A DNA stretch of 64,000 nucleotides. Origin: a virus (lineage: Duplodnaviria; Heunggongvirae; Uroviricota; Caudoviricetes). The stretch is taken from IMG/VR virus record IMGVR_UViG_2778261667_000017; one strand, given 5' to 3'. The stretch's first letter is position 1, and the number at the start of each line of letters is the position of its first letter. The notes beneath the pieces are model-generated. The model ran no database searches, was not told where the DNA came from, and saw only the letters and a list, made by a program, of their open reading frames with translations. Of the stretch, positions 19,145-37,936 are shown one piece after another. Made by a program: the position numbers and the translations under genes.

Positions 19145-19176
19145 AGACGAACAGGGAGGGCCGCCCCTCCCTGAAC

Positions 19177-21062: not shown

Positions 21063-22138
21063 ACGATAACGTCACGCTACGGGTAAATGGCCGGGAGTGG
21101 AATGGCTGGACATCGGTGCGCATCGGTGCCGGTGTTGAACGACTGGCGCGGGATTTCAGTGTGGAGATCACCCGCCAGTGGCCGGGAGATGAGGGGATCA
21201 CCACGCTTCAGCCGCGCATTAAAAACGGTTCAAAAGTGGAAGTGCTGATTGGTGATGAGCTGGTGATCACCGGCTGGGTGGAGGCGACGCCCGTTCGTTA
21301 CGATGCCCGTTCGGTCAGCACCGGTATTGCCGGACGCAGTCTGACCGCTGATCTGATTGACTGTGCAGCCGAACCGACACAGTTTAACGGACGATCGCTG
21401 GTACAGATTGCGCAGGCGCTTGCTGCGCCCTTCGGCATTGAGGTGGTGAACAACGGTGCGCCGTCGGGTGTTATTCCTGACGTCCAGCCTGATCACGGTG
21501 AAACGGTGATTGAGGTAATCAACAAAATACTCGGTCAGCAGCAGGCACTGGCTTACGACGACCCGCACGGCAGGCTGGTGATTGGCGGTATTGGCTCAAC
21601 GCGGGCACATACTGCACTGGTACTTGGGGAAAACATCCTTTCCTGCGATACGGAGAAGAGTATCCGGGAGCGGTTTTCTGTTTACCAGGTGGCGGGGCAG
21701 CGTGCCGGAAACGACGATGATTTCGGTGAGGCCACCACCACCGCGCTGCGGGCCCGCACAGAGGACGCATTTATTGCCCGTTACCGTCCGATGTATATCA
21801 GGCAGACAGGGCAGGCCACGGGGGCAGGCTGTATTGCGCGTGCTGACTTTGAAGCCCGGCAACGGGCGGCGCGGACGGATGAAACCACCTATGTGGTGCA
21901 GGGCTGGCGACAGGGTAACGGTACGCTGTGGCAGCCCAACCAGCGGGTGATTGTCTTCGATCCGGTCTGTGGTTTTGACAATACCGAACTGCTTGTCTCG
22001 GAAGTCACGTTTACTCAGGACCAGAATGGCACCCTGACGGAAATCCGTGTCGGCCCGCCTGATGCTTATCTGCCTGAACCCGAAGACCCCGGCGCGCGGA
22101 AAAAGAAAAAAGCCAGAGTACAGGAGGACCCGTTCTGA
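21059..22138 (+). CDS. baseplate hub protein (Mu gpP-like)
   Basis: 359 aa, overlapping start. Confidence 0.7.
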   Translation: MNDNVTLRVNGREWNGWTSVRIGAGVERLARDFSVEITRQWPGDEGITTLQPRIKNGSKVEVLIGDELVITGWVEATPVRYDARSVSTGIAGRSLTADLIDCAAEPTQFNGRSLVQIAQALAAPFGIEVVNNGAPSGVIPDVQPDHGETVIEVINKILGQQQALAYDDPHGRLVIGGIGSTRAHTALVLGENILSCDTEKSIRERFSVYQVAGQRAGNDDDFGEATTTALRARTEDAFIARYRPMYIRQTGQATGAGCIARADFEARQRAARTDETTYVVQGWRQGNGTLWQPNQRVIVFDPVCGFDNTELLVSEVTFTQDQNGTLTEIRVGPPDAYLPEPEDPGARKKKKARVQEDPF

Positions 22139-22686
22139 TGAGGACGATTGAAGCCATGCAGCGACAACTCCTCGGCCTGATTGGGCGGGCCGTGGTGAAA
22201 AGCATCAGTGCCGCCACGAAATGTCAGACCGTGGATGTGTCCCTGATTGCCGGTGAACCCAAAGCCGGGATTGAACATCTTGAACCCTACGGTTTTACCG
22301 CAAGGGCAAACAGCGGTGCGGAAGCGGTGGTGTTGTTTCCGGATGGCGACCGTTCTCATGCGGTGGTTGTTACGGTGTCGGACCGGCGCTACCGCCTGAA
22401 AGGGCTGCAGACGGGTGAGGTGGCTGTCTATGACGATCAGGGGCAGTCCGTGACGCTGACCCGGGAGGGGATCGTGGTGGACGGTGCAGGTAAAACGATC
22501 ACGTTTCGCAATGCACCTGAAGCACGTTTTGAAATGGACCTGGAAGTGACAGGACAGGTGAAAGACCTGTGCGACTCCGGCGGCACCACCATGTCAGCGA
22601 TGCGGCTTGCCTATAACGGCCATCGTCACAGAGAGAACGGTCAGGGCAGTAACACCGATAAACCTGATAAAGCGATGGAGGCATGA
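22138..22686 (+). CDS. baseplate assembly / spike protein (Mu gp45-like)
   Basis: 182 aa. Confidence 0.65.
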   Translation: MRTIEAMQRQLLGLIGRAVVKSISAATKCQTVDVSLIAGEPKAGIEHLEPYGFTARANSGAEAVVLFPDGDRSHAVVVTVSDRRYRLKGLQTGEVAVYDDQGQSVTLTREGIVVDGAGKTITFRNAPEARFEMDLEVTGQVKDLCDSGGTTMSAMRLAYNGHRHRENGQGSNTDKPDKAMEA

Positions 22687-23111
22687 TGGAACTGTGGCTG
22701 ACGGTGAACGGTAAACGCACCTGCGCCAGCGCACCGCTGGATCCGCTGACCCGCGCCGTGGTGATTTCCCTGTTCACCTGGCGGCGGGCGGAGCCTGATG
22801 ACAACGCCGACGTCCCGATGGGATGGTGGGGGGATTCCTGGCCTGCGGTACAGAATGACCGTTACGGTTCTCGACTGTGGCTGCTTCAGCGCAGCAAACT
22901 GACCAATCAGCTGGTACAGACGGTAAGGGGATATATCCGCGAATGCCTGCAATGGATGATTGATGATGGCGTGGTGTCCCGTATTGATCTGGATATCCGT
23001 CGCACCGGGATTAATGAGCTGGGTAACAGTATCACCCTCTGGCGTCGTGACGGACCGGTAATGATTTCTTTTGATGATCTGTGGAGTGCGATAACGCATG
23101 GCGGACAGTGA
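22683..23111 (+). CDS. baseplate protein (Mu gp46-like)
   Basis: 142 aa. Confidence 0.6.
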   Translation: MMELWLTVNGKRTCASAPLDPLTRAVVISLFTWRRAEPDDNADVPMGWWGDSWPAVQNDRYGSRLWLLQRSKLTNQLVQTVRGYIRECLQWMIDDGVVSRIDLDIRRTGINELGNSITLWRRDGPVMISFDDLWSAITHGGQ

Positions 23112-24156
23112 ATTTCAGCGCCCGACGCTGGCAGAAAATATCAGTATGCTCCGTAACGATTTATTCGCCAGGCTGGACGTCAGCGACACGCTCCGGCGCA
23201 TGGATGAAGACGTGCGGGCAAAGGTGTATGCGGCGGCGCTGCATACGGTTTACGGGTACATCGATTATCTGGCAATGAACATGCTGCCTGACCTGTGCGA
23301 TGAGTTCTGGCTGGCGCGACATGCTGCGATGAAACGGTGTCCGCGCAAGGGTGCCACAGCTGCCAGCGGGTATATGCGCTGGGAAGGCGTCAGCGATGGC
23401 CTGAAGGTGACCGCCGGGAGTGTTATTCAGCGCGATGACCTGGTTCAGTACACGGCAACTGCCGATGCAACCAGCTCCGGTGGTGTCCTGCGCCTGCCGA
23501 TCGCCTGTTCAACTGCAGGCGCGGTCGGTAACGCTGACGACGGTACGGCATTAATCCTGGTCACGCCGGTGAATGGTCTGCCGTCTTCCGGTGTGGCTGA
23601 CACCCTGACAGGCGGATTTGATACTGAAGAGCTGGAAACGTGGCGCGCCCGCGTCATTGAGCGGTATTACTGGACGCCGCAGGGCGGGGCTGACGGGGAC
23701 TATGTTGTCTGGGCTAAAGAAGTGCCCGGCATTACCCGCGCATGGACATACCGTCACTGGATGGGAACGGGAACTGTCGGTGTGATGATTGCCAGCAGTG
23801 ACCTGATTAATCCCATTCCGGAAGAATCAACGGAAACGGCAGCAAGACAACATATCGGGCCACTGGCCCCGGTGGCAGGCTCTGATTTGTATGTATTCAG
23901 GCCGGTGGCGCATAAAGTGGATTTTCATATCCGCGTGACGCCGGACACACCAGAAATACGGGCTGCCATTACCGCGGAGTTGCGTTCGTTCCTGCTGCGT
24001 GATGGTTATCCGCAGGGAGAGCTGAAGGTGTCGCGTATCAGTGAAGCGATTTCCGGTGCGAACGGGGAATACAGCCATCAGTTGCTTGCACCGGCAGACA
24101 ATATCTCCATTGCGAAAAACGAACTGGCGGTTCTGGGGACGATTTCATGGACGTGA
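23098..24156 (+). CDS. baseplate J-like protein (Mu gp47-like)
   Basis: 352 aa. Confidence 0.75.
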
Positions 24157-24731
24157 CAAACGATGATTACATCCGTCTGTTGTCAGCACTGTTGCCGCCC
24201 GGTCCGGCGTGGTCAGCCAGCGATCCGGCGATTGCCGGTGCAGCACCGTCATTAACCCGTGTTCATCAGCGTGCGGATGCCCTGATGCGGGAGCTGGATC
24301 CGCGCACCACCACCGAACTGATAAACCGCTGGGAGCGTCTGTGCGGCCTGCCGGATGAATGTATTCCCGCAGGGACACAGACCCTTCGCCAGCGTCAGCA
24401 ACGGCTGGATGCGAAGGTTAACCTGGCGGGCGGCATCAACGAGGATTTTTATCTTGCACAGCTTGCTGCCCTGGGCAGACCAGATGCCACCATCACGCGA
24501 TACGACAAAAGCACCTTCACCTGCTCATCGGCCTGTACTGACGCGGTGAATGCGCCGGAATGGCGGTATTACTGGCAGGTCAACATGCCAGCTGCCACCA
24601 ACACCACCTGGATGACATGTGGTGATCCCTGTGATTCCGCACTGCGTATCTGGGGCGACACCGTTGTCGAGTGTGTGCTTAACAAACTCTGCCCTTCGCA
24701 TACCTACGTAATTTTTAAATATCCGGAGTAA
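24147..24731 (+). CDS. tail protein (Mu gp48-like)
   Basis: 194 aa. Confidence 0.6.
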
Positions 24732-24734
24732 TCC

Positions 24735-25397
24735 ATGCATCGTATAGACACGAAAACCGCGCAGAAGGATAAGTTCGGCGCGGGTAAGAGCGGTTTTACC
24801 CGTGGTAACCCCCAGACCGGCACACCTGCCACCGATCTGGATGATGACTACTTTGACATGTTGCAGGAAGAACTCTGCAGCGTGGTGGAGGCATCCGGTG
24901 TCAGCCTGGAGAAGGGGCGGCATGACCAGCTGCTTACCGCGCTTCGTGCGCTGCTGTTAAGCCGCAAGAATCCGTTTGGCGATATCAAATCGGATGGCAC
25001 GGTGAAAACGGCTCTCGAAAACCTTGGTTTGGGAGAAGCGGCAAAACGGGATGTGGGGACAGGGGAAAATCAGATACCGGACATGGCCTCTTTTGCCAGT
25101 GGTGATGGATGGATGAAATTACCCAACGGGAAAATCCTGCAATATGGTCGTGGTGCGGTTACGCCGACATTATCGACGCAAACAATGAGAATTACATTCA
25201 GCATCCCTTTCCCCAAAAAAGCGGACTGCGCCATGCTTACTCATTCTGGTGATGGCGGTGCGCCTTTAGGCGCTGGGCGAGGGTTCGTGATGACTGCAGA
25301 AGGCCCAACGTTAACCGGCTTTAATTCTGCTTACAGAACGTCATCAACCAGCGACACGGTATCGATGAATTACAGTTGGTGGGCTGTTGGTGAGTAA
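24735..25397 (+). CDS. tail fibre protein, constant N-terminus fused to the currently expressed variable C-terminus
   Basis: 220 aa; crosses the left inversion site at the GLGE codons. Confidence 0.75.
25014..25038. repeat. left inversion site (gix/pix-like)
   Basis: ctcgaaaaccttggtttgggagaag; the 13 bp ggtttgggagaag recurs inverted at 26903..26915. Confidence 0.65.
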
Positions 25398-25408
25398 TTT
25401 TATTCAGG

Positions 25409-25861
25409 GTGATTTATATGAACGAATATGTTTATAGCGCAAGGCATAATGCTTTTTTCCCTGTGGATATGATTGATAAATATAAATCAGAGGGATGGGA
25501 TTTATCAGACGCTAAGGAAGTAAATCAAAATATTATCAGTGAGTTTATGGCTGAACCGCCACAAGGAAAAATCCGTATTGCCGGAGATGATGGGCTGCCT
25601 GCGTGGGCAGATATTCCTCCACCCACGCATGAAGAGCTTATTGAAATTACTGAATCAGAAAGACAGCTACTAATTAACCAGGCCAACGAATACATGAACA
25701 GTAAGCAATGGCCCGGTAAAGCCGCTATTGGTCGTCTGAAAGGTGAGGAACTGGCGCAATATAATTTGTGGCTGGATTATCTGGATGCACTGGAGCTGGT
25801 TGATACCTCCAGTGCGCCAGATATTGAATGGCCTACGCCTCCGGCAGTTCAGGCCAGATAA
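25409..25861 (+). CDS. tail fibre assembly protein (expressed orientation)
   Basis: Ends ...SSAPDIEWPTPPAV, the conserved tail-fibre-assembly C-terminus. Confidence 0.7.
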   Translation: MIYMNEYVYSARHNAFFPVDMIDKYKSEGWDLSDAKEVNQNIISEFMAEPPQGKIRIAGDDGLPAWADIPPPTHEELIEITESERQLLINQANEYMNSKQWPGKAAIGRLKGEELAQYNLWLDYLDALELVDTSSAPDIEWPTPPAVQAR

Positions 25862-26435
25862 CATCCGGCGCGGTGCTGGTATCTGTTGCCGTCACCGCGT
25901 CAATGTAATCCAGCACAGCGTTAAGTCTGGTTGTTTCTGCCTGCGTCAGTTTACGTCCGGCCTGCAATTTCAGTTGAATCAGACTGATGGAAGCCATTGC
26001 TGCATCAATCAGTGACTGGCGCTGTGCTTCTGCCGCTTCTACTGCGGCACCGTGTTGTGCCTCAGTATCTGTCACCCATTTTTCACCATCCCATTTATCG
26101 TATGGCGTTAACGGGGCGATAGTGGTTGTATTTTCGGGATAGTCGCCTAGTGCTGTGATTCCTTTGGCATCTCCCGTTTCGGTGTTATAGACGATTTCAC
26201 CGCGATGGTCTGACACATATTCCCATGATTTTAAATCCACAGAACGGCAAATTGTATAACCAGCCTTAGATGTACCAGGAGCGTCTAAACAGGAATATGC
26301 TGGAATACCGACACCCACTGCAAGATATTCAGTTGATGCAGAAATATATTCCCGCGTCTCACCATCATAGTTATAGACGGTAATATTCCCCGCCTTCGTG
26401 GTAATAAGCTCGCTATTTAATACGGCGTTATCCAT
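25833..26435 (-). CDS. tail fibre assembly protein (alternative, silent orientation)
   Basis: Ends ...TSTAPDVIWPELPEA; convergent with the other assembly gene. Confidence 0.7.
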   Translation of the reverse strand: MDNAVLNSELITTKAGNITVYNYDGETREYISASTEYLAVGVGIPAYSCLDAPGTSKAGYTICRSVDLKSWEYVSDHRGEIVYNTETGDAKGITALGDYPENTTTIAPLTPYDKWDGEKWVTDTEAQHGAAVEAAEAQRQSLIDAAMASISLIQLKLQAGRKLTQAETTRLNAVLDYIDAVTATDTSTAPDVIWPELPEA

Positions 26436-26915
26436 TATGCAGCCCTCACGATATAGTTAAATGCAATATTTCGTGGACGGGTTTCACTCCCGCCAGTATT
26501 ACCGATACTCCCTCGTGAATGAAGTGTCGGTGATGGGATCAGAGTTCCGCCTGCACTGGTAGCATCCAGCCCCTTGCCCTGTGTATATGTATTTCGGAAG
26601 ATTGTTGCCAGCTCCCATTCCTCTTTTGAATCATGCCCATCGTTAGCTACAACAAAATGACGGTGCTTTTCCAGCATTCCGGCCTGAATACTCAATAAAA
26701 CACGTCCTGCATCAATACCGCGCCCGTCATCCCAGCCACGAATAAACTCACCGCGTAAATCAGGTAATTTATTTGTTGGATAAGCCTTTGCCAGTTCCGG
26801 GTATTCTTCAGCAGAAAATGCCGCACCGTTGCATTTCAGCCAGCCTGTTGGCGGTGTGACTGAAGACCATGGAACAGGCACACCAACAGGTAATGCAGAG
26901 CCTTCTCCCAAACCA
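26435..26915 (-). CDS. alternative tail-fibre C-terminal cassette (promoterless; fused to the constant region after inversion)
   Basis: Reading frame continues through the right inversion site with GLGEG matching GLGEA of the expressed fibre. Confidence 0.6.
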
Positions 26916-26927
26916 ACGTTTATGAAA
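26903..26927. repeat. right inversion site (gix/pix-like)
   Basis: cttctcccaaacc is the reverse complement of the left-site core; lies just upstream of the invertase gene. Confidence 0.65.
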
Positions 26928-26982
26928 ATGCAGAAATAACGAGCAAATGGCATCATTCCTGCTTTTGTCAGGGGGATCTACC

Positions 26983-27537
26983 ATGCTTATTGGCTATGTA
27001 CGCGTATCAACAAATGACCAGAACACAGATCTACAACGTAATGCGCTGAACTGTGCAGGATGCGAGCTGATTTTTGAAGACAAGATAAGCGGTACAAAGT
27101 CCGAAAGGCCGGGACTGAAAAAACTGCTCAGGACATTATCGGCAGGTGACACGCTGGTGGTCTGGAAACTGGACCGGCTGGGGCGCAGTATGCGGCATCT
27201 TGTCGTGCTGGTGGAGGAGTTGCGCGAACGAGGCATCAACTTTCGTAGTCTGACGGATTCAATTGATACCAGTACCCCAATGGGGCGCTTTTTCTTTCAT
27301 GTGATGGGTGCCCTGGCTGAAATGGAGCGTGAACTGATTGTTGAAAGAACAAAAGCTGGACTGGAAGCTGCTCGCGCACAGGGACGAATTGGTGGACGTC
27401 GTCCCAAACTTACACCAGAACAATGGGAACAGGCCGGACGATTAATTGCATCAGGAGTTCCTCGCCAGAAGGTGGCGATTATCTATGATGTTGGTGTGTC
27501 AACTTTGTATAAGAGGTTTCCTGCAGGGGATAAATAA
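26983..27537 (+). CDS. pin: DNA invertase, serine recombinase (Pin/Gin/Hin family)
   Basis: MLIGYVRVSTNDQNTDLQRNAL...; start at the internal Met after the inversion site. Confidence 0.9.
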   Translation: MLIGYVRVSTNDQNTDLQRNALNCAGCELIFEDKISGTKSERPGLKKLLRTLSAGDTLVVWKLDRLGRSMRHLVVLVEELRERGINFRSLTDSIDTSTPMGRFFFHVMGALAEMERELIVERTKAGLEAARAQGRIGGRRPKLTPEQWEQAGRLIASGVPRQKVAIIYDVGVSTLYKRFPAGDK

Positions 27538-27643
27538 AGTTAAAGACACTTTGTGTACAAAAGAAAGTAAAACAACAGCAACTTGTTGCAATTTTATCAA
27601 TAAAAGTAGTATTGTCGTGAAAAATTGATTAAAGATTAATATT

Positions 27644-28477
27644 ATGCATGTTTTTGATAATAATGGAATTGAACTGAAAGCTGAGTGTTCGATAGGTGAA
27701 GAGGATGGTGTTTATGGTCTAATCCTTGAGTCGTGGGGGCCGGGTGACAGAAACAAAGATTACAATATCGCTCTTGATTATATCATTGAACGGTTGGTTG
27801 ATTCTGGTGTATCCCAAGTCGTAGTATATCTGGCGTCATCATCAGTCAGAAAACATATGCATTCTTTGGATGAAAGAAAAATCCATCCTGGTGAATATTT
27901 TACTTTGATTGGTAATAGCCCCCGCGAGATACGCTTGAAGATGTGTGGTTATCAGGCTTATTTTAGTCGTACGGGGAGAAAGGAAATTCCTTCCGGCAAT
28001 AGAACGAAACGAATATTGATAAATGTTCCAGGTATTTATAGTGACAGTTTTTGGGCGTCTATAATACGTGGAGAACTATCAGAGCTTTCACAGCCTACAG
28101 ATGATGAATCGCTTCTGAATATGAGGGTTAGTAAATTAATTAAGAAAACGTTGGGTCAACCCGAGGGCTCCAGGAAACCAGTTGAGGTAGAAAGACTACA
28201 AAAAGTTTATGTCCGAGACCCGATGGTAAAAGCTTGGATTTTACAGCAAAGTAAAGGTATATGTGAAAACTGTGGTAAAAATGCTCCGTTTTATTTAAAT
28301 GATGGAAACCCATATTTGGAAGTGCATCATGTAATTCCCCTGTCTTCAGGTGGTGCTGATACAACAGATAACTGTGTTGCCCTTTGTCCGAATTGTCATA
28401 GAGAATTGCACTATAGTAAAAATGCAAAAGAACTAATCGAGATGCTTTACGTTAATATAAACCGATTACAGAAATAA
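27644..28477 (+). CDS. mcrA: McrA-like HNH nuclease (type IV modification-dependent restriction)
   Basis: 277 aa; C-terminal HNH motif CENCG...HHVIPLSSGG...CPNCH; same position after pin as mcrA in K-12 e14 (from memory). Confidence 0.75.
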   Translation: MHVFDNNGIELKAECSIGEEDGVYGLILESWGPGDRNKDYNIALDYIIERLVDSGVSQVVVYLASSSVRKHMHSLDERKIHPGEYFTLIGNSPREIRLKMCGYQAYFSRTGRKEIPSGNRTKRILINVPGIYSDSFWASIIRGELSELSQPTDDESLLNMRVSKLIKKTLGQPEGSRKPVEVERLQKVYVRDPMVKAWILQQSKGICENCGKNAPFYLNDGNPYLEVHHVIPLSSGGADTTDNCVALCPNCHRELHYSKNAKELIEMLYVNINRLQK

Positions 28478-28710
28478 AATTGTTTATTAAAGTCACATTT
28501 AAGACGTAATACCCTACAGGGTAAAAATTTTCTCTGATCTTAACTTCTGCAAATGTTAACTGCTATTTTTATGCTAAAAATGGTTATCAAAACTCAAAAA
28601 CACATGTTTATAATCAATGAGTTATAGAAATGCTAAGGGCTAATGAGTTATATGCAAATTAGTAAAATTATGTTGCTATCTCAAATAGTTACGATTTAGT
28701 CATCTAACTA

Positions 28711-28875
28711 ATGCTGCGCCATATGGGTTGGACTGAAGCGGCTGACCTGATTGTTAAAGGTATGGAAGGCGCAATCAATGCCAAGACCGTAACCTATGAC
28801 TTCGAACGTCTGATGGAAGGCGCTAAACTGCTGAAATGTTCAGAGTTTGGTGACGCGATCATCAAGAATATGTAA
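28711..28875 (+). pseudogene. icd: icd 3' fragment (isocitrate dehydrogenase C-terminal about 54 codons, no upstream coding body)
   Basis: Translates [54 protein letters not shown], matching the Icd C-terminus from memory with about two substitutions. Confidence 0.8.
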
Positions 28876-28898
28876 TCACTACATGTGTTAAATATTGA

Positions 28899-28927
28899 AA
28901 CGGGCGTATAACACGCCCGTTGTTTTA
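28899..28927 (+). terminator. intrinsic terminator after the icd fragment
   Basis: aacgggcgt-ataac-acgcccgtt hairpin followed by gttttat. Confidence 0.5.
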
Positions 28928-28941
28928 TGATGATTTAAAAT

Positions 28942-28978
28942 CTTCCCCAAAACTTTCCCCAAAACCCTTCCCCAAAAC
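28942..28978. repeat. three tandem copies of a 12 bp unit (cttccccaaaac-like), candidate integrase arm-type binding sites
   Basis: ttccccaaaac at 28943, 28955 and 28968, just upstream of the integrase 3' end. Confidence 0.4.
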
Positions 28979-28988
28979 TGGCTATTTT

Positions 28989-30131
28989 CTATGCTGTTTT
29001 GATATCTACGATAATCCAGTCTTTACCACGATCATCATTGTATCGGTCGGTCATTTTTCTGGATTTATGACCTAACAACTTTTGCGTATCCAGACCCTGT
29101 TCCCGATATAACCGTTCTGACAGAGATCGCTGCTCATGAAATGTGGGCGCAGTTCCTTGCTCCCATTTTATGCCACATTTTTCCCTGGCCTTTTTAAAAG
29201 CCGTTGTAAGAGTATTTGCAGACACCTGGTCTCCTCTGTTTGCTTGAGAGGTAGTGTGACGGTAATGGACCAGATATTTACTAACAACAGCATCCCTGCA
29301 CTGAGATATAACTTCACGAAGGGTAATATTCAGAGCATCGCATTTCAGGTTAAGCGGAATAGCAAGTTTTGAACCGGTTTTTTCCTGAGTAATGTGCAAC
29401 ATGTCGTCCCAGATATCAGAGAATTTCAAATTGCAGATATCGCCTAAACGTTGTCCAGTGACAAGAGCAAGTAGCATCCCGCATTTTAAATAGGGCTGCC
29501 GTCTGCTTACGCTGTCAAATATTGCCTGCCATTCGGGCAGTGATAATCTTTGGCGGTTTACTCGATTTCGCGGTTGTTTTGTTGCCTGCGCTGGGTTAAA
29601 TCCTGGCGGAACATGTCCGGCGTGTTGTGCTTCTTTGAAGACGTCGATCAACACCATTCTCACGACTTGCGCCATCCTGTTATGACCTTCAGCCTTTACA
29701 GCATCAATTATTTCGGCAATATCAAGTGCGGTAATATCCTTGAGGTGTTGCATTCCACAATGCTCACGGAAAAGACGAATGGGTTTGCCTTTTTGCCGAT
29801 AGGAGTTGGGTCTTAGTTCATTATGTTGCAGCCTGTCCTCCTGGATAGAAATATATTTATCAAGCCATTCTGTCACCGTAATGTCTGAGCGCCTGCCTTT
29901 CATTCTTTCCAGACGCTCATTGACGCTTAATATTTGTCGGGTACGTTGTTCAGCAATAATGGTATTTGCTTCAGTAGCAACTTGTTTTGCTTCATTCTCA
30001 TCAGTTCCTAAGCTATGAAAACGACCGGATAGTGGATGTTTGTATTGCCAATATACCTTTCCGGTTCGCTTATCTAATTTGCAATATAAATTGGGTATAG
30101 AGATTTTGTGAGATCGGGGGCTAGCAGCCAT
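28989..30131 (-). CDS. int: tyrosine integrase
   Basis: 380 aa; C-terminal catalytic region with ...HEQRSLSERLYREQG...LLGHKSRKMTDRY. Confidence 0.9.
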   Translation of the reverse strand: MAASPRSHKISIPNLYCKLDKRTGKVYWQYKHPLSGRFHSLGTDENEAKQVATEANTIIAEQRTRQILSVNERLERMKGRRSDITVTEWLDKYISIQEDRLQHNELRPNSYRQKGKPIRLFREHCGMQHLKDITALDIAEIIDAVKAEGHNRMAQVVRMVLIDVFKEAQHAGHVPPGFNPAQATKQPRNRVNRQRLSLPEWQAIFDSVSRRQPYLKCGMLLALVTGQRLGDICNLKFSDIWDDMLHITQEKTGSKLAIPLNLKCDALNITLREVISQCRDAVVSKYLVHYRHTTSQANRGDQVSANTLTTAFKKAREKCGIKWEQGTAPTFHEQRSLSERLYREQGLDTQKLLGHKSRKMTDRYNDDRGKDWIIVDIKTA

Positions 30132-30357
30132 CAGCGATTATCCGTTGGAGTTTTGGGTTTGCGTTTATTGGGAGTTGCGGTTCTGCAAGCGTTCCTACAA
30201 AACGGGAATTTCGGTCAATCATCCAGTAGCGACCAACTTTTATAGCGGGTGGGGCCATCATTTTCCCTTGCGCGTATTTTTTCAGAACTCGCTCACTTGG
30301 TGCTAAGTCCCCAAATTCTTCTTTAGCCCAGTCCTGTAAAGTGATTAGTCGAGACAT
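30121..30357 (-). CDS. xis: excisionase
   Basis: 78 aa, overlaps the int start. Confidence 0.7.
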   Translation of the reverse strand: MSRLITLQDWAKEEFGDLAPSERVLKKYAQGKMMAPPAIKVGRYWMIDRNSRFVGTLAEPQLPINANPKLQRIIADGC

Positions 30358-30496
30358 TTGTCCTCCTCTTAGCTGCTGAGGGAGTTTGTGACCGATATAT
30401 CTGACATGATATTAAGCTCATGGCAGGTACATCTCTTGACTGGTCATAGAGATAAATTTAATGCTGAGAAATGCAGTATTGAATTTATCAATTTTT

Positions 30497-30736
30497 CTAT
30501 TTCCTGCGTATGGCACGTAACTTCTTAATGTGTTCTGCTGTATCGATCTCTTCGGCTATCCGCTCTGATTCCACTTTACTCACAGGTTCAAAGTCATGAT
30601 TAAAGCGGAACATGCTGGCGATACATGTTCTGCCTTTTCGGATGTAGTGAACTTTGTTGTGGGTAGAACGCAGGATTTTGCAGGGAGTGCCGTGGTGGTC
30701 GACGTACCAGGTGTTAGGAAAAATGATTCTGAACAT
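30497..30736 (-). CDS. hypothetical protein
   Basis: 79 aa ORF. Confidence 0.45.
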   Translation of the reverse strand: MFRIIFPNTWYVDHHGTPCKILRSTHNKVHYIRKGRTCIASMFRFNHDFEPVSKVESERIAEEIDTAEHIKKLRAIRRK

Positions 30737-30783
30737 TTTTACACCTCAGTTGGACGATGTTGAAATTTGCTGCTTTGAGGCCA

Positions 30784-31002
30784 TTACAATCCCCATTGTT
30801 TGTTCTTAAGTTCGATCTCCTCCTGGCAACTTGCACAAGTCCGACAACCCTGAACGGCCAGGCGTCTTCGCTCATCTATCGGATCGCCACACTCACAACA
30901 ATGAGTGGCAGATATAGCCTGGTGGTTCAGGCGGCGCATTTTTATTGCTGTGTTGCGCTGTAATTCTTCAATTTCTGATGCTGAATCAATGATGTCTGCC
31001 AT
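30784..31002 (-). CDS. TraR/DksA-family C4 zinc-finger protein
   Basis: 72 aa with CCECG...CRTCASC. Confidence 0.6.
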   Translation of the reverse strand: MADIIDSASEIEELQRNTAIKMRRLNHQAISATHCCECGDPIDERRRLAVQGCRTCASCQEEIELKNKQWGL

Positions 31003-31100
31003 CTTTCATTAATCCCTGAATTGTTGGTTAATACGCTTGAGGGTAAATGCGAATAATAAAAAAGGAGCCTGTAGCTCCCTGATGATTTTGCTTTTCATGT

Positions 31101-31382
31101 TCACCGTTCCTTAAAGACGCCGTTCAACATGCCGATCGCCAGGCTTAAATGAGTCGGTGTGAATCCCATCAGCGTTACCGTTTCGCGGTGCTTCTTTAGT
31201 ACGCTACGGCAAATGTCATCGACGTTTTTATCCGGAAACTGCTGTCTGGCTTTTTTGATTTCAGAATTAGCCTGACGGGCAATGCTGCGAAGGGCGTTTT
31301 CTTGCTGAGGTGTCACTGAACAAGCCCCATGTCGGCAAGCATAAGCACACAGAATATGAAGCCCGCTGCCAGAAAAATGCAT
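31101..31382 (-). CDS. hypothetical protein
   Basis: 93 aa ORF. Confidence 0.4.
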   Translation of the reverse strand: MHFSGSGLHILCAYACRHGACSVTPQQENALRSIARQANSEIKKARQQFPDKNVDDICRSVLKKHRETVTLMGFTPTHLSLAIGMLNGVFKER

Positions 31383-31392
31383 TCAGTGGTTG

Positions 31393-31584
31393 TCATACCT
31401 GGTCTCTCTCATCTGCTTCTGCTTTCGCCACCATCATTTCCAGCTTTTGTGAAAGGGATGTGGCTAACGTATGAAATTCTTCGTCTGTTTCTGCTGGTAT
31501 TGGCACAAACCTGACTCCAATTTGAGCAAGGCTATGTGCCATCTCAATACTCGTTCTTAACTCAACAGGAGATGCTTTGTGCAT
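31393..31584 (-). CDS. hypothetical protein (lambda orf63-like position)
   Basis: 63 aa. Confidence 0.4.
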   Translation of the reverse strand: MHKASPVELRTSIEMAHSLAQIGVRFVPIPAETDEEFHTLATSLSQKLEMMVAKAEADERDQV

Positions 31585-31745
31585 ACCGCCTCCCGTTTAT
31601 TATTTATCTTCTCAGCCAGCCGCTGTGCTTTCAGTGGATTTCTGATAACAGAAAGGCCGGGAAATACCCAGCCTCGCTTTGTAACGGAGTAGACGAAAGT
31701 GATCGCGCCTACCCGGATATTATCGTGAGGATGCGTCATCGCCAT
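31557..31745 (-). CDS. hypothetical protein (lambda orf60a-like position)
   Basis: 62 aa, overlaps the exo start. Confidence 0.4.
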
Positions 31746-32416
31746 TGCTCCCCAAATACAAAACTAATTTCAGCCAGTGCCTCGTCCATTTTTTCGATGA
31801 ACTCCGGCACCATCTCGTCAAAACTCGCCATGTACTTTTCATTCCGCTCAATCACGACATAATGCAGGCCTTCACGCTTCATGCGCGGGTCATAGTTGGC
31901 AAAGTACCAGGCATCTTTTCGCGTCACCCACATGCTGTACTGCACCTGGGCCATGTAAGCCGATTTTATTGCCTCGAAACCACCGAGCCGGAATTTCATG
32001 AAATCCCGGGAGGTAAACGGGCATTTCAGTTCAAGGCCGTTCCCGTCACTGCATAAACCATCGGGAGAGCAGGCGGTGCGCATACTTTCGTCGCGATAGA
32101 TGATCGGGGATTCAGTAATATTCACGCCGGAAGTGAATTCAAACAGGGTTCTGGCGTCGTTCTCGTACTGTTTTCCCCAGGCCAGCGCCTTAGCATTAAC
32201 TTCCGGAGCCACACCGGTGCAAACCTCAGCCAGCAGGGTGTGGAAGTAGGACATTTTCATGTCAGGCCACTTCTTTCCTGAGCGGGGTTTTGCTATCACG
32301 TTGTGAACTTCTGAAGCGGTGATGACGCCGAGCCGTAATTTGTGCCATGCATCATCCCCCTGTTCGACAGCTCTCACGTCGATCCCGGTACGCTGCAGGA
32401 TAATGTCCGGTGTCAT
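31736..32416 (-). CDS. exo: lambda exonuclease (Red-alpha)
   Basis: 226 aa [40 protein letters not shown], near-identical to lambda Exo from memory. Confidence 0.95.
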
Positions 32417-33198
32417 GCTGCCACCTTCTGCTCAGTGGCTTTCTGTTTCAGGAATCCAAGAGCTTTCACTGCTTCGGCCTGTGTCAGTTCTGACGATGCG
32501 CGAATGTCGCGGCGAAATATCTGGGAACAGAGCGGCAATAAGTCGTCATCCCATGTTTTGTCCAGGGCAATCAGCAGAGTGTTAATCTCCTGCATGGTTT
32601 CATCGTTAACCGGAGTGATGTCGCGTTCCGGCTGACGTTCTGCAGTGTATGCGGTATTTTCGACAATGCGCTCGGCTTCATCCTTGTCATAGATACCCGC
32701 AAATCCGAAGGCCAGACGGGCACACTGAATCATGGCTTTATGCCGTAACATCCGTTTGGGATGCGACTGCCACGGCCCCGTAATTTCTCTGCCTTCGCGG
32801 GTTTTGAATGGTTCGCGACGGCATTCATCCATCCACTCGGTAACGCAGATCGGATGATTACGGTCCTTGCGGTAAATCCGGCATGTACAGGATTCATTGT
32901 CCTGCTCAAAGTCCATGCCATCAAACTGCTGGTTTTCATTGATGATGCGGGACCAGCCATCAACGCCCACCACCGGAACGATGCCATTCTGCTTATCAGG
33001 AAAGGCGTAAATTTCTTTCGTCCACGGATTAAGGCCGTACTGGTTGGCAACGATCAGTAATGCGATGAACTGCGCATCGCTGGCATCACCTTTAAATGCC
33101 GTCTGGCGAAGAGTGGTGATCAGTTCCTGTGGGTCGACAGAATCCATGCCGACACGTTCAGCCAGCTTCCCTGCCAGCGTTGCGAGTGCTGTACTCAT
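32413..33198 (-). CDS. bet: Bet single-strand annealing protein (Red-beta)
   Basis: 261 aa [21 protein letters not shown], lambda Bet from memory. Confidence 0.95.
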
Positions 33199-33203
33199 TC
33201 GTT

Positions 33204-33500
33204 TTATACCTCTGAATCAATATCAACCTGGTGGTGAGCAATGGTTTCAACCATGTACCGGATGTGTTCTGCCATGCGCTCCTGAAACTCAACATCGTCA
33301 TCAAACGCACGGGTAATGGCTTTTTTGCTGGCCCCGTGGCGTTGCAAATGATCGATGCATAGCGATTCAAACAGGTGCTGGGGCAGGCCTTTTTCCATGT
33401 CGTCTGCCAGTTCTGCCTCTTTCTCTTCATGGGCGATCTGCTGGTAGTGACGCGCCCAGCTCTGAGCCTCAAGACGATCCTGAATGTAATAAGCGTTCAT
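33204..33500 (-). CDS. gam: Gam (RecBCD inhibitor), short GamS-length ORF
   Basis: 98 aa [21 protein letters not shown]; the upstream ATG at 33621 that would give the long form is out of frame here. Confidence 0.85.
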
Positions 33501-33575
33501 GGCTGAACTCCTGAAAATGGCTGTGAAAATATCGCCCGCGAAATGCCAGGCTGATTAGGAAAACAGGAAAGGGGG

Positions 33576-33719
33576 TTAGTGAATGCTTTTGCTTGATCTC
33601 AGTTTCAGTATTAATATCCATTTTTTATAAGCGTCGACGGCCTCACGAAACATCTTTTCATCGCCAATAAAAGTGGCGATAGTGAATTTAGTCTGGATAG
33701 CCATAAGTGTTTGATCCAT
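33576..33719 (-). CDS. kil: Kil (host cell-division inhibitor)
   Basis: 47 aa [47 protein letters not shown]; the ORF-track 89 aa extension is rejected. Confidence 0.8.
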
Positions 33720-33852
33720 TTTTTGGGACTCCTGGCTGATTAAGTATGTCGATAAGGCGTTTCCATCCGTCACGTAATTTACGGGTAATTCGTTCAAGTA
33801 AAGATTCGGAAGGGCAGCCAGCAACAGGCCACCCTGCAATGGCATATTGCAT
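33688..33852 (-). CDS. cIII: CIII (FtsH inhibitor)
   Basis: 54 aa [54 protein letters not shown] read from the reverse strand; below ORF-track size cut-off. Confidence 0.8.
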   Translation of the reverse strand: MQYAIAGWPVAGCPSESLLERITRKLRDGWKRLIDILNQPGVPKNGSNTYGYPD

Positions 33853-33924
33853 GGTGTGCTCCTTATTTATACATAACGAAAAACGCCTCGAGTGAAGCGT
33901 TATTGGTATGCGGTAACGCCGCGT

Positions 33925-34293
33925 TCAGGCGGCTTTGATAGTCATATCATCTGAATCAAATATTCCTGATGTATCGATATCGGTAATTCTTATTCCTTCG
34001 CTACCATCCATTGGAGGCCATCCTTCCTGACCATTTCCATCATTCCAGTCGAACTCACACACAACACCATATGCATTTAAGTCTTTCGAAATTGCTATAA
34101 GCAGAGCATGTTGCGCCAGCATGATTAATACAGCATTTAATAAAGAACCGTGTTTATTTAGTCGGTATTCAGAGTCTGACCAGAAATTATTAATCTGGTG
34201 AAGTTTTTCCTCTGTCATTACGTCATGGTCGATTTCAATTTCTATTGATGCTTTCCAGTCGTAATCAATGATGTATTTTTTGATGTTTGACAT
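33925..34293 (-). CDS. ea10: Ea10-like protein
   Basis: 122 aa MSNIKKYIIDYDWKASIEIEIDHDVMTEEKLHQ, lambda Ea10 from memory. Confidence 0.85.
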   Translation of the reverse strand: MSNIKKYIIDYDWKASIEIEIDHDVMTEEKLHQINNFWSDSEYRLNKHGSLLNAVLIMLAQHALLIAISKDLNAYGVVCEFDWNDGNGQEGWPPMDGSEGIRITDIDTSGIFDSDDMTIKAA

Positions 34294-34492
34294 CTGTTCA
34301 TATCCTCACAGATAAAAAATCGCCCTCACATTAGAGGGCAAAGAAGATTTCCAATAATCAGAACAAGTCGGCTCCTGTTTAGTTACGAGCGACATTGCTC
34401 CGTGTATTCACTCGTTGGAATGAATACACAGTGCTGTGTTTATTCTGTTGTTTATGCCAAAAATAAAGGCCGACTATGCGGCCTGAAATTAC

Positions 34493-34726
34493 TTAACCAA
34501 TGATGCTGCATATTCGATAAGGTAAAGCTTTGGGGCCAGCCAAATTTTTAACCAAGTCATATTGGTTACTACACCAATAATAAAAATCCCCCACAGAGTC
34601 AAAACTCCAACCAATGGCTGATAAGAAGGTTAATATCTCCTTTGCTATCCCAAACCATTGTCGGCCTGTATTTGGGATTTCCCCTCTCCCATGAGTATCC
34701 TTCATCACCGATTTTACCTGTCTCAA
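34493..34726 (-). CDS. hypothetical ORF overlapping 34599..34937 in another frame (possible frameshifted continuation)
   Basis: 77 aa, hydrophobic. Confidence 0.25.
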   Translation of the reverse strand: MRQVKSVMKDTHGRGEIPNTGRQWFGIAKEILTFLSAIGWSFDSVGDFYYWCSNQYDLVKNLAGPKALPYRICSIIG

Positions 34727-34937
34727 CTCTTTGGCACTGCTTCTTCATAAACCAGAAAACCAGTGGGATTGTTAGAATGGCTATTAATGTTTTAATCAGA
34801 CTGTCAACCATATTCCATAGCAGCAACTGATGAACAACATCAGGAATCTGCGCTTGGCTGAATGAAACAGCCGCGTCTATTCCATTGCTGGCTTTTTGCA
34901 GTAGTTCTACGAGAATCTTGTTTGCTTGTTCTTCCAT
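34599..34937 (-). CDS. hypothetical small membrane protein (inserted between ea10 and ral)
   Basis: 112 aa with hydrophobic segment LIKTLIAILTIPLVFWFM; AT-rich; no lambda counterpart that I recall. Confidence 0.4.
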   Translation of the reverse strand: MEEQANKILVELLQKASNGIDAAVSFSQAQIPDVVHQLLLWNMVDSLIKTLIAILTIPLVFWFMKKQCQRVETGKIGDEGYSWERGNPKYRPTMVWDSKGDINLLISHWLEF

Positions 34938-34996
34938 ATATCCCCTTGATTGTAATAAGCATGAAATTATTTACGGCCAAAAAATAAAGGCCACCA

Positions 34997-35197
34997 TCAG
35001 GCAGCCTTGTTATTCTGTTTACCAAGTTCTCTGGCAATCATTGCCGTCGTTCGTATTGCCCATTTATCGACATATTTCCCATCTTCCATTACAGGAAACA
35101 TTTCTTCAGGCTTAACCATGCATTCCGATTGCAGCTTGCATCCATTGCATCGTTTGAATTGTCCACACCATTGATTTGTATCAATAGTCGTAGTCAT
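34997..35197 (-). CDS. ral: Ral (restriction alleviation)
   Basis: 66 aa MTTTIDTNQWCGQFKRCNGCKLQSECMVKPEEMF, lambda Ral from memory. Confidence 0.9.
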   Translation of the reverse strand: MTTTIDTNQWCGQFKRCNGCKLQSECMVKPEEMFPVMEDGKYVDKWAIRTTAMIARELGKQNNKAA

Positions 35198-35410
35198 ACG
35201 GATAGTCCTGGTATTGTTCCATCACATCCTGAGGATGCTCTTCGAACTCTTCAAATTCTTCTTCCATATATCACCTTAAATAGTGGATTGCGGTAGTAAA
35301 GATTGTGCCTGTCTTTTAACCACATCAGGCTCGGTGGTTCTCATGTACCACTACAGCGAGAAATCGGATAAACTCTATTCACCCCTACAGAGAGCAAAAG
35401 AGAAACGCCG

Positions 35411-35992
35411 ATGAACAACTCATGGTGGCAGGAACTAATGCATTTTTTCCTGCAAGGAATGACACTTAAACAGTTGATTCATATGCTAATCATCCTGATC
35501 ATATTGATTATTGTTATGCCGGTAAGCGTAAAAGAATGGATAAACCTGCATAATCCAGAAATCCTTCCTCATTACTGGATGTATTACATCCTGTTGTTTT
35601 GCGTTAGCTATGTGCTTAACGGCGTTGTTAATTCCGCTTATCACGCTGTGACTGAAAGAATTGAGGTATCCGCTGCTCAGAAGCGCAAATCTAAAGAAGA
35701 AAAATATGTGCAAGATTTGTTTGATTCATTAACTCTTGGAGAAAGAGCGTATTTGGCATTTGCTGTAGCCGCTAATAACCAGCTACAAACGGAAAAGGGA
35801 GCTCATGAATCAATTTCATTGCTCAAAAAAGGACTCCTCGCTCGAAGGCCTCCTGCTGTTGGATATCCTGATACCGACCGTTTCGTTATCCCTGAAAGCT
35901 ATAGACATGAGTGCTACATTAGGTTTGCCGGGAAGGCAGACAGCCTTATGGATGAACTTATCGCTCAGGATAAGCATGGCAAAAACAAGTAA
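35411..35992 (+). CDS. sieB: SieB-like superinfection exclusion protein (membrane)
   Basis: 193 aa starting MNNSWWQELM with an N-terminal hydrophobic region; plus-strand gene between ral and N as in lambda. Confidence 0.65.
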   Translation: MNNSWWQELMHFFLQGMTLKQLIHMLIILIILIIVMPVSVKEWINLHNPEILPHYWMYYILLFCVSYVLNGVVNSAYHAVTERIEVSAAQKRKSKEEKYVQDLFDSLTLGERAYLAFAVAANNQLQTEKGAHESISLLKKGLLARRPPAVGYPDTDRFVIPESYRHECYIRFAGKADSLMDELIAQDKHGKNK

Positions 35993-36008
35993 TTAGCAAA
36001 TGAATTTA

Positions 36009-36281
36009 TCATCTCGCCGTCAGTTGTTTTGATTTCCGGTAGCCTGCCGCGTAAATGGCTACGTTTGGCAGGCAAATACTTCCACTGCATTCATCTGCCT
36101 TCTTGCAGCGAAGGCTTCCGAGTGATGCTGCTTTGTCTGCTCTGACGCAACCAGAGAGCTTTAGCGCAATTTTTCGCGCCAGTCGCTGTTCTTGCATTGC
36201 CTGCTCACGTTGAGCCTGTCTGCGTGCTCTGCGGCGATTTCTGGCGTTATCGTCAGCCAGATATGTAATGACTACTGCCAT
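36009..36281 (-). CDS. N-like early antiterminator (P22 gp24 type)
   Basis: 90 aa; arginine-rich motif NARNRRRARRQAQREQ; C-terminus ...AIYAAGYRKSKQLTAR resembles P22 gp24. Confidence 0.7.
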   Translation of the reverse strand: MAVVITYLADDNARNRRRARRQAQREQAMQEQRLARKIALKLSGCVRADKAASLGSLRCKKADECSGSICLPNVAIYAAGYRKSKQLTAR

Positions 36282-36481
36282 GTTGACCTCCGATGATTGA
36301 CTTTGGCGGTGACGCGCCGGGTGCTTATCTTCCGGTTGCCGTCGTGCAGCTGCACTTCACGTCACCCCACCCCAAAGCCAACTACTCTTTGGTTCCCGCA
36401 TTTCGGCGGGACAATCCCATCAATGTTAAAGAGCCTGCCAATCTGTTCCGTTTGGCTACCAGCGTCCTGCTGATGACTTAA

Positions 36482-36499
36482 ATTTAAGATTTCTTTAAT
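36482..36499. promoter_or_regulatory. operator-like site in the oL/pL region
   Basis: atttaagatttctttaat, P22-type operator-like palindrome between N and the repressor. Confidence 0.4.
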
Positions 36500-36598
36500 T
36501 GCTGGTCAAGGGTGTTTTTGAAGAAAACTTAAATTTTATTGCGAAGTTTAAGTTTTGCTTTGATTTTTAAAGGAAAGAAAAAAAGGGGCGAATGCCCC

Positions 36599-37249
36599 TT
36601 ATGGAAGGTTTGCTATTTTTGCATCGACAACTACACCGATGATTTTGCAGTTCCCGTTGATCTCAATCATCGGATATTGTGGGTTAAGTGGTTTTAGAAA
36701 CCTTCTGCCAGCATCAATAACTAACTTCTTGAAAGTTGCCTCGTTTTCTCCTTCGAGCTTTGCCACTACCAGCTTCCCATTACGAGGTTCTACTTCAGGA
36801 TCGACTAGTATTATCATCCCTTCCGGGATGCTAAGACCGGCTGGAGCCGTCATCGAATCACCCTTTACGTCCAGCCAAAACGAATCTTCTGAACAATCTA
36901 CGGTTGTATCGTACCAGTTATCTATTGCACGCTTATGATATGGCTCTACAGCTTCCATCCAACATCCTGCGCTTACCCAACTAATTAGAGGATACGAACC
37001 TCTTGGATCATGCCTGCTGTGATAGGCAATGTTTGAAAGACTATCTTCTCCTTTCAACAAGTAATCAGGGGAGCACTGTAAAGCCTTGGCTAAAGCCAAT
37101 AGGTTTTCGCCATTGGGCTCAGTTTCAGAACGCTCCCATTGGGAAATAGCAACATTAGACACGCCAACCATCTTGCCAAGGGCAGCCTGCCTAATCTTAA
37201 GTTCTTTTCTGCGAGCGCGAATACGCTCACCCATCAGTTGTGTATTCAT
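36599..37249 (-). CDS. CI-type repressor (P22 C2-like; helix-turn-helix plus S24 peptidase domain)
   Basis: 216 aa MNTQLMGERIRARRKELKIRQAALGKMVGVSNVAISQWERSE; C-terminal autocleavage domain. Confidence 0.9.
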   Translation of the reverse strand: MNTQLMGERIRARRKELKIRQAALGKMVGVSNVAISQWERSETEPNGENLLALAKALQCSPDYLLKGEDSLSNIAYHSRHDPRGSYPLISWVSAGCWMEAVEPYHKRAIDNWYDTTVDCSEDSFWLDVKGDSMTAPAGLSIPEGMIILVDPEVEPRNGKLVVAKLEGENEATFKKLVIDAGRRFLKPLNPQYPMIEINGNCKIIGVVVDAKIANLP

Positions 37250-37320
37250 AGTTAAGACATCTTAAATAAACTTGACTTAAGATTCCTTTGATAGATAATT
37301 TAAGTATTCTTTAATTTCGG
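37250..37320. promoter_or_regulatory. oR/pR/pRM region with operator-like palindromes
   Basis: agttaagacatcttaaat (37250..37267) and atttaagtattctttaat (37298..37315) in the divergent repressor-cro intergenic region. Confidence 0.5.
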
Positions 37321-37329
37321 AGCGAGTCT

Positions 37330-37515
37330 ATGTACAAGAAAGATGTTATCGACCACTTCGGAACCCAGCGTGCGGTAGCTAAAGCGTTAGGCATTAGCGA
37401 TGCAGCAGTCTCTCAGTGGAAGGAAGTCATCCCAGAGAAAGACGCCTATCGACTGGAAGTCGTTACAGCTGGCGCCCTGAAGTATCAAGAAAGTGCTTAT
37501 CGCAAAGCGGCATAA
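37330..37515 (+). CDS. cro: Cro
   Basis: 61 aa MYKKDVIDHFGTQRAVAKALGISDAAVSQWKE, P22 Cro-like. Confidence 0.85.
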   Translation: MYKKDVIDHFGTQRAVAKALGISDAAVSQWKEVIPEKDAYRLEVVTAGALKYQESAYRKAA

Positions 37516-37623
37516 GCAAATTGCTCTTTAACAGTCATGGTCCTTATTCCCGCCGAAATGCGGGAATACAACGCGCATCAGTTGGTGCGTATAACTTCTT
37601 ATTTGTTAAGGAAATACTTACAT

Positions 37624-37902
37624 ATGCAACTTACAAGTACTCGCAAGAAAGCGAATGCAATCACAAGCAACATCCTGAATCGAATTGCTGTACGTGGTCA
37701 GCGAAAGGTTGCTGATGCATTAGGGATTAATGAATCGCAAATTTCGCGATGGAAAGACAGCTTTATCCCAAAGATGGCCATGCTTCTGGCTGTGCTGGAG
37801 TGGGGTGTTGAAGACGAGGAATTAGCAAAGCTAGCAAAGAAAGTAGCCATGGTGCTGACAAAAGAAAAGCCTCAAGACTGCTGCAACAGTTTTGAGGCCT
37901 GA
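37624..37902 (+). CDS. CII-like transcriptional activator
   Basis: ESQISRWKDSFIPKMAMLLAVLEWGV resembles lambda CII; start at the Met after an AAGGA ribosome-binding site. Confidence 0.75.
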   Translation: MQLTSTRKKANAITSNILNRIAVRGQRKVADALGINESQISRWKDSFIPKMAMLLAVLEWGVEDEELAKLAKKVAMVLTKEKPQDCCNSFEA

Positions 37903-37936
37903 TGTAGAAAGACTGGATCAATCCACAGGAGTCATT

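Follow-up and report, generated by a model that had tools for sequence, protein, structure and literature searches.

How does a short 3' fragment of icd come to lie inside a phage sequence, between the last gene of one prophage and the integrase gene of another? The question is raised by a 64,000-nucleotide stretch of DNA assigned to a tailed virus (IMG/VR record IMGVR_UViG_2778261667_000017; below, "the window" means this whole stretch), in which pin and mcrA are followed by such a fragment and then by an integrase gene. A first reading of the letters (the original prediction) had proposed that two elements sharing one attachment (att) site, an e14 relative (prophage A) and an element with phage-21-type genes (prophage B), have integrated in tandem, and that the icd fragment is the hybrid att junction between them. 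As that reading had it, e14 and phage 21 both integrate in icd, which is well known as a prophage site (PMC12803456; PMC10111431; PMC6379469), and prophages arrayed in tandem with three related att sites have been recognised before (PMC10111431). All the elements described in that reading lie at the positions given, and our analysis leads to the same answer: with a probability of roughly 93%, window positions 28478-28988 are the middle one of the attachment sites in a tandem array of two prophages at the 3' end of icd. The structure of the junction is P(e14)-core-P'(21), that is, the P arm of an e14-type phage, a crossover core and the P' arm of a phage-21-type phage.

The window is identical (100%) to positions 225,988-289,987 of PTSF01000006.1, a contig of an Escherichia coli draft assembly (GCA_002965845.1), of which it forms the last 64 kb, and none of 5,426 complete E. 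coli genomes carries the region at above 97-98% identity. An intact icd (416 aa, record positions 212,628-213,878), which the original prediction had suggested looking for upstream of prophage A, is indeed found in this source contig, 12.1 kb upstream of the window, so that on this side the objection that the flanks might lack icd copies falls away. The gene order there is purB-hflD-mnmA-nudJ-rluE-icd, orf256, a 375-aa integrase, an 81-aa excisionase, a yfbR-like gene, yfdQ and yfdP. Reading rightward, the body of icd leads through a core (record position 213,715) into prophage A's own icd 3' copy, an e14-type terminator and three TTATCAAAA sites, and then into orf256, intA/xisA and the rest of prophage A. 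This prophage ends in pin, mcrA, an e14-type P arm with one TTATCAAAA and the core again, after which come B's icd 3' copy, a terminator, three TTCCCCAAAA sites, intB/xisB and prophage B up to the end of the contig. The left site thus consists of bacterial flank, core and P' of element A, and the middle site of P of A, core and P' of B, as in a Campbell-type array; the corresponding right site, with P of B, core and native bacterial flank, is present in the complete genomes 82.0311 and PEC131. The contig stops 1 nt past the window, within the lambdoid tail genes of prophage B, and the right end of B is absent from it because the assembly broke in these repeated genes. The break at 64000 is a typical repeat-induced assembly stop, the tail genes there being near-identical across many prophages.

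Eleven att sites were aligned, in keeping with the proposal that the icd 3' copies be compared in order to define the core: those of the window and of an independent draft assembly (GCA_036607865.1), the three sites of 82.0311, the attL of a close relative, the attL and attR of K-12, the attL of O157, and the attP sites of phages 4A7 and 21. To the left of 28711 these sites fall into three unrelated flank classes, namely the icd body, the e14 P arm and the 21 P arm. Positions 28711-28928 are homologous in all eleven, a 218-nt block made up of the 3' end of icd and its terminator (165 coding bases plus 53 bases including the terminator), which contains the 165-bp copy and terminator of the original prediction and extends them. 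Beyond 28928 the sites once more divide into three classes: e14 P' arm, 21 P' arm with its dodecamers, and native chromosome. The window pairs an e14 P arm, which is related neither to the icd body nor to the P arm of phage 21, with a fragment and rightward sequence that form a phage-21-type attP half, which is the predicted hybrid. On the left side, window 26683-28928 matches the e14 right end of K-12, pinE-mcrA-icdC and a further 53 nt, at 97.3% identity. On its right side, window 28709-30400 is 98.1-98.2% identical to the attP-int-xis region of phage 21 and 99.2-99.3% to that of phages 4A7, 3W and ev017, and O157:H7 genomes have an icd/int junction that matches the 218-bp block and the int side at 99.6% identity. 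Likenesses of this order are not due to chance.

The alignment yields a core of 10 bp, TGCTGCGCCA. Where exchange takes place within the homologous block can be seen in two K-12 MG1655-derived records in which a luxR cassette was integrated via attP21 between icd and e14 (NZ_CP174267.1, 1704667-1709320) and for which both parents, the K-12 attL and the phage 21 attP, are known. All informative bases to the left of TGCTGCGCCA keep the parental flank and all those to its right are exchanged; since the flank bases sort exactly at TGCTGCGCCA, the exchange can be placed within 28712-28721. The same crossover limit is obtained by comparing the attL and attR of K-12, and single-nucleotide polymorphisms from e14 excision begin at the base after the core, 1196220 (PMC13626634). 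The resolution of the crossover is 10 bp, no finer.

The motifs that flank the core are probably arm-type Int sites, annotated as such in phage 21 (TTCCCCAAAA) and, in e14, predicted from their arrangement (TTATCAAAA). The record of phage 21 (OL657228.1) annotates the dodecamers as "attP 3 subsites P1P2P3, consensus YYTTCCCCAAAA", and a fourth TTCCCCAAAA lies 128 nt upstream of the core in its P arm; TTCCCCAAAA is likewise found at -128 in the attR of B in the relatives 82.0311 and PEC131. The window carries three copies at the offsets seen in phage 21. Their number agrees with the three tandem 12-bp repeats originally described, but they are not strictly tandem 12-mers, the spacing being 12 and then 13 bp. 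K-12 e14 has three TTATCAAAA copies at attL, directly past the terminator of icd, and another at -127 from icdC; the 19.5-kb e14 locus holds six matches where 0.43 would be expected. One geometry is therefore common to both phage types: a single site at -127/-128, and three more in the interval from about +232 to +258.

Three points weigh against the interpretation of the locus as given so far. First, the contig ends inside B, and the third icd copy of the source strain, beyond prophage B, is predicted from its relatives. Second, the role of TTATCAAAA as a predicted Int arm site rests on position and repetition. Third, a variant core, TGTTACGCCA, which carries two synonymous changes relative to TGCTGCGCCA, is found at the O157 attL (4001-4012 of locus L002) and at both downstream sites of PEC131 (the junction and the attR of B), where it follows both e14-type and 21-type P arms. 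These changes lie inside the core and are common to sites with different flanks, a pattern that is not fully explained by a single fixed crossover point.

It may also be asked whether the array owes its existence to two sequential Int-mediated insertions at all, or whether it was formed or imported by homologous recombination, either because transduction or conjugation brought in an icd region from a strain lysogenic for the other phage or because RecA recombined the 218-bp icd repeats with one another. The three icd copies are direct repeats, 90-97% identical, and the copy belonging to the source's prophage A is a mosaic: it is identical to window 28711-28928 at 197 of 218 positions (L069 5524-5741), with the differences clustered after the stop codon, so that its coding part is almost of the B/native type, whereas the K-12 e14 copy differs throughout. 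Such a pattern suggests that gene conversion may have taken place in the past among the repeated icd ends. However, in all the sites examined one flank class gives way to another precisely at the 10-bp core, as site-specific exchange would predict, and we regard an origin by homologous recombination as unlikely; it would in any case alter the history of the feature and not its nature.

A second alternative is that the junction is an artefact, in which short reads were mis-joined through repeated icd 3' sequence. The source is a draft assembly, after all, and its contig breaks at another phage repeat 35 kb downstream. Yet the junction also occurs in the independent draft mentioned above, with an identical 218-bp block and one base difference in the P' arm, and in four complete-genome records representing two strain pairs. 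Moreover, the three icd copies differ at many positions, which limits mis-joining, and, icd being single-copy, two prophages with icd-type att ends must adjoin anyway. An assembly error is accordingly very improbable.

The complete genomes in question, 82.0311/82.0312 and PEC131/PEC165, share the order of the source: icd, an e14-family prophage, icd', a 21-type int, a lambdoid prophage, icd'' and ycgX/bluR. For 82.0311 this reads, more fully, intact icd and intE/xisE ... pinE-mcrA' - icd' - int/xis ... sitABCD - icd'' - ycgX-bluR. Their hybrid junctions align over 100% of window 28478-29100, at 96.8% (82.0311) and 94.4% (PEC131) identity. These strains differ from the source in the right end of A, which has a GIY-YIG gene and either a truncated mcrA or none, in the immunity and late genes of B and, in PEC131, in the core, which is TGTTACGCCA.

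To which of the two elements does the icd fragment itself belong? From 28717 onward it does not differ from the O157 prophage type. From K-12 icdC it differs at 8 positions, clustered round the stop codon, where it follows the B-type copies, and from the phage 21 copy at about 13 positions. Because of this identity from 28717 and the B-type bases near the stop codon, the fragment (icd') is prophage B's own phage-borne copy rather than a chromosomal remnant, and no expression of it is expected at the junction. Its terminator hairpin folds at -17 kcal/mol (z = -3.1), and the phage 21 record annotates the equivalent hairpin as a terminator. If the fragment were instead a native icdC relic of an e14-type insertion, the integrase would have to come from an element inserted elsewhere, just downstream. 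The fragment is 96-97% identical to K-12 icdC, an annotated relic, as that explanation would have it, but homology to the attP of phages 21 and 4A7 begins at the core (28709-28711) and runs unbroken across terminator and dodecamers into int, the sequence past K-12 icdC diverges from the window after 28928, and around the stop codon the fragment has the diagnostic bases of the B-type copies. We consider this explanation more improbable still than a mis-assembly.

We return, then, to two prophages meeting at a shared site. A and B are two complete, unrelated phage genomes: repressor region, lysis cassette and full virion gene set (an SfII/SfI-like contractile-tail set and a lambda-like one) are all present twice, and there are two int/xis pairs, IntA and IntB being 60% identical and XisA and XisB 35%. 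The least credible alternative, a single composite prophage with one integrase of which the pin-mcrA side and the int side are the two ends, has physical adjacency in its favour and nothing more, and it fails because a second int/xis pair adjoins intact icd in the same contig, the regulatory, lysis and structural modules are duplicated in myovirus and siphovirus types, and the halves occur alone elsewhere (A's right end in K-12, B's left end in O157). The prediction of two elements in tandem at one attachment site is thus upheld by the recombinase pairs, the flank classes and the three-site relatives alike, and the finding of a single int that would have overturned it was not made.

Table 1. 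Features of the two prophages and of their junction, in window coordinates.
Feature	Position	Strand	Basis
Prophage A, right-hand 28.7 kb	1..28710	+	Late region 96-97.5% identical to SfII/SfI/SfIV; left end read in source contig
pin, serine DNA invertase	26983..27537 (K-12-type start; ORF-finder start 26947)	+	180/184 to K-12 PinE; Pfam Resolvase and HTH_7
mcrA, HNH methyl-directed restriction endonuclease, last gene of A	27644..28477	+	275/277 to K-12 McrA; Pfam HNH
e14-type P arm, non-coding right arm of A	28478..28710	+	Near-identical to K-12 mcrA-icdC interval (97%)
TTATCAAAA, predicted e14-type arm-type Int site	28584..28592	+	-127 from core; likeness to K-12
Prophage B, left-hand 35.3 kb	28711..64000	+	Lambdoid siphovirus; identities to phage 21, PhiR11_1, mEp332
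icd', 165 nt, last 54 icd codons	28711..28875	+	Pfam Iso_dh positions 301-348 of 348
Crossover core TGCTGCGCCA, 10 bp	28712..28721	+	Common to attB, e14 attP and phage 21 attP
icd-type intrinsic terminator in phage copy	28899..28927	+	Hairpin 28899-28921, 9-bp stem, 6 GC pairs, T-run
Three TTCCCCAAAA arm sites, P' arm of B	28943..28977 (28943, 28955, 28968)	+	Annotated counterpart in phage 21
intB, lambda-type tyrosine recombinase, 380 aa	28989..30131	-	376/380 to phage 21 Int; Pfam Arm-DNA-bind_1 and Phage_integrase
xisB, excisionase, 78 aa	30121..30357	-	78/78 to phage 21 Xis (OL657228.1); Pfam Exc; overlaps intB

Under the Campbell model with lambda-type intasomes, each phage would have inserted by Int-mediated exchange inside TGCTGCGCCA. 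The first would have integrated at attB, and the second would have recombined with the resident's attL or attR, in which the core is retained, instead of with a free attB. The middle site would then serve both as attR of A (e14 arm, left) and as attL of B (21 arm, right), and icd would stay intact because each attP brings its own last 165 nt of icd and a terminator. With integrases 60% identical and with different arm motifs (TTATCAAAA versus TTCCCCAAAA), each Int/Xis pair would be expected to recognise its own motif and to excise no prophage but its own; joint excision of A and B would pair non-cognate arms. Loss of A should leave an O157-like icd::B attL, and loss of B a K-12-like mcrA-icdC attR. 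The order in which the two phages arrived is not deducible from the sequence, because an exchange at the left edge of the homology block gives identical products either way. From the engineered K-12 case one learns no more than that the icd-proximal site of a resident e14 is open to an incoming attP21 element.

Adjacent e14 and phage 21 prophages are not without precedent. Wang et al. are said to have described them in 1997 in K-12(21) lysogens, with different integrases that share one attB in icd, and each Int/Xis reportedly excised its own element far better than its neighbour, with which the scheme set out above agrees. In the same work, attP21 reportedly needed about 366-418 bp, bounded by repeated dodecamers and with ~209 bp of icd homology; the 21-type site measured here spans -128 to +257, about 395 bp, which fits that size. 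Those lysogens are laboratory strains with a defective e14, whereas the window comes from a natural isolate with a full-length e14-family phage, and in the engineered K-12 integrant the order is reversed, e14 lying beyond the attP21 cassette as seen from icd. The e14 right end of K-12 MG1655 (NC_000913.3, 1209685-1211577) resembles the window in having the same core, TTATCAAAA at -127 and then a 165-nt icd 3' fragment. In K-12, however, this fragment is the native chromosomal 3' end and is followed by iraM, whereas in the window it is B's copy, followed by a phage-21-type arm and int. Phage 21 (OL657228.1, 27333-28979; M61865.1) has the same order and spacing, with an "ICDH-like" 165-nt pseudogene, a terminator, three YYTTCCCCAAAA dodecamers, int and xis, but what precedes the core is a 21-type P arm in the free phage and an e14 arm in the window. 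The icd remnant of O157:H7 strains (e.g. FRIK944), comprising the icd 3' end, terminator, dodecamers, int and xis, is 99.55% identical to window 28711-30497. In contrast to the window, it sits directly on intact icd with no e14-family prophage upstream, and it is degraded, with a replication gene truncated beside xis; the FRIK944 genome gave only one match to the junction query.

Prophage A is a 41-kb e14-family myovirus with its own integrase, as follows from the IntE/XisE-type pair after intact icd in the source contig. It measures 40,984 bp from core to core and starts 12.3 kb upstream of the window, inside icd. IntA is identical to K-12 IntE at 361 of 375 residues and XisA to XisE at 76 of 81. 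This recombinase pair adjoins an intact icd whose 3' end comes from the element, and at the other end pin-mcrA and an e14-type P arm abut the icd core. Its head, contractile-tail and lysis genes are complete, and the late genes, with their contractile-tail set, are those of Shigella myoviruses (96-97.5% identity to SfII, SfI and SfIV). We rejected the idea that A is the 15.2-kb defective e14 of K-12: the latter is a 15-kb remnant with truncated late genes, for which A, a full-length relative, has intact counterparts, and the early-left region of A is a different module (yfdP-yfdQ-yfbR-like). This module, from a cI-like repressor to yfdP-yfdQ-yfdR, lies 8-10 kb upstream of the window and is ~98% identical to prophages with other integrases at other chromosomal sites, which shows clearly that integration modules have been swapped within the SfV/e14 family. 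Because the yfdP-yfdQ-yfdR relatives carry other integrases at other loci, one might suspect that a chromosomal rearrangement had placed the left end of A elsewhere, but the source contig reads through xisE, intE and icd, and this was rejected too.

Several further features of prophage A can be mentioned. A 1.9-kb tail-fibre segment (25019-26921) adjoins pin and is bounded by 20-nt inverted repeats (25019-25038 and 26902-26921, 95% complementary); in the independent draft GCA_036607865.1 (locus L016) it is found the opposite way round, at 99.8% identity, and it has the look of a host-range switch inverted by Pin, of which the two assemblies show one state each. Between the Q antiterminator and the holin, two cargo genes on the minus strand (1689-4081) are opposed to their neighbours and encode a 404-aa protein without a Pfam match and a 391-aa member of the NA37 (nucleoid-associated protein) family. 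Relatives have different genes in this slot, and the placement and direction of the two genes point to a moron, perhaps a defence pair. A 148-aa OB-fold (tRNA_anti-like) gene, also reversed (19177-19623, minus strand), lies between the tape-measure and DNA-circulation genes and is missing from some close relatives (L010-L014).

Prophage B carries a phage-21-type integration module, with orthologous Int and Xis, an icd 3' copy and terminator between core and int, and three P' dodecamers; the predicted order of an integrase following the repeats is borne out. IntB is a lambda-type tyrosine integrase, with an arm-binding N-terminal domain and a catalytic domain holding the residues R-K-H-R-H-Y. 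It aligns over its full length to lambda Int (1z1b) with conserved catalytic motif contexts (TGQRLGD, EKTGSK, FHEQRS, LLGHKS and DRY opposite TGQRVGD, SKTGVK, FHELRS, LLGHKS and SQY); the catalytic roles are assigned by analogy with lambda Int. B is nevertheless not phage 21. Its DNA identity to that phage is 98.1% in int-xis, 96.5% in exo-bet-gam, 98.5% in O-P-nin and 93-96% in the tail genes, and it falls to 86% in the immunity region and 66-69% in the head genes, with a different Q region. The lysis genes, originally called phage-21-type, do deserve that name (45119-46964, 94.8% identical to the S21/R21/Rz region), and phages PhiR11_1 and mEp332 share the late region of B at 96.5% identity. 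Non-phage cargo lies between the nin/Q region and the lysis genes (42204-43880) and encodes a lipocalin (Blc-like, minus strand) and a DUF1722 / 2-thiouracil-desulfurase-like protein. An Rfam scan gave no match at the junction; its sole match in the window was the lambda cIII thermoregulator RNA element in the early-left operon of B (33807-33865, minus strand, 88.5 bits).

How often are the two types of element found together? Among the 5,426 complete E. coli genomes, the A-B hybrid junction (counting matches to at least 80% of window 28478-29100) is present in four, i.e. the two strain pairs described above, and the reverse-order (B-A) junction in another four, two of which are engineered cassettes. 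An e14-type right arm is found in 337 genomes, many of them laboratory K-12 records, and a 21-type arm with int in 1,679, so that under naive independence one would expect both elements in ~100 genomes. Double occupancy looks rarer than that, but with so many laboratory records among the 337 this is no more than a lead. It is tempting to conclude that double occupancy of icd is disfavoured and that the order of insertion is constrained, but we consider this unlikely. Should it hold after correction for phylogeny and for laboratory K-12, a prophage already in residence would give the shared attB some protection against the other phage, probably because one flank of the core is replaced by a foreign arm. 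The A-B order would then mean that an e14-like phage entered the icd-proximal attL of a resident 21-like prophage, the site that was chosen in K-12 by the attP21 cassette.

The feature belongs to an already known and well-understood kind and opens no new question; we found no paper on this particular natural pairing, which does not make it a new kind. In practice, prophage callers would merge A and B into one segment of >76 kb (41 kb of prophage A and at least 35 kb of readable prophage B) unless the internal att site is recognised, and annotation pipelines label the 54-codon relic as a truncated dehydrogenase. For the biology of these phages, the junction yields clean, testable predictions on the separate excision of A and B and, together with the other aligned sites, documents two arm-site codes, TTATCAAAA and TTCCCCAAAA, that are laid out in the same geometry around one 10-bp core.

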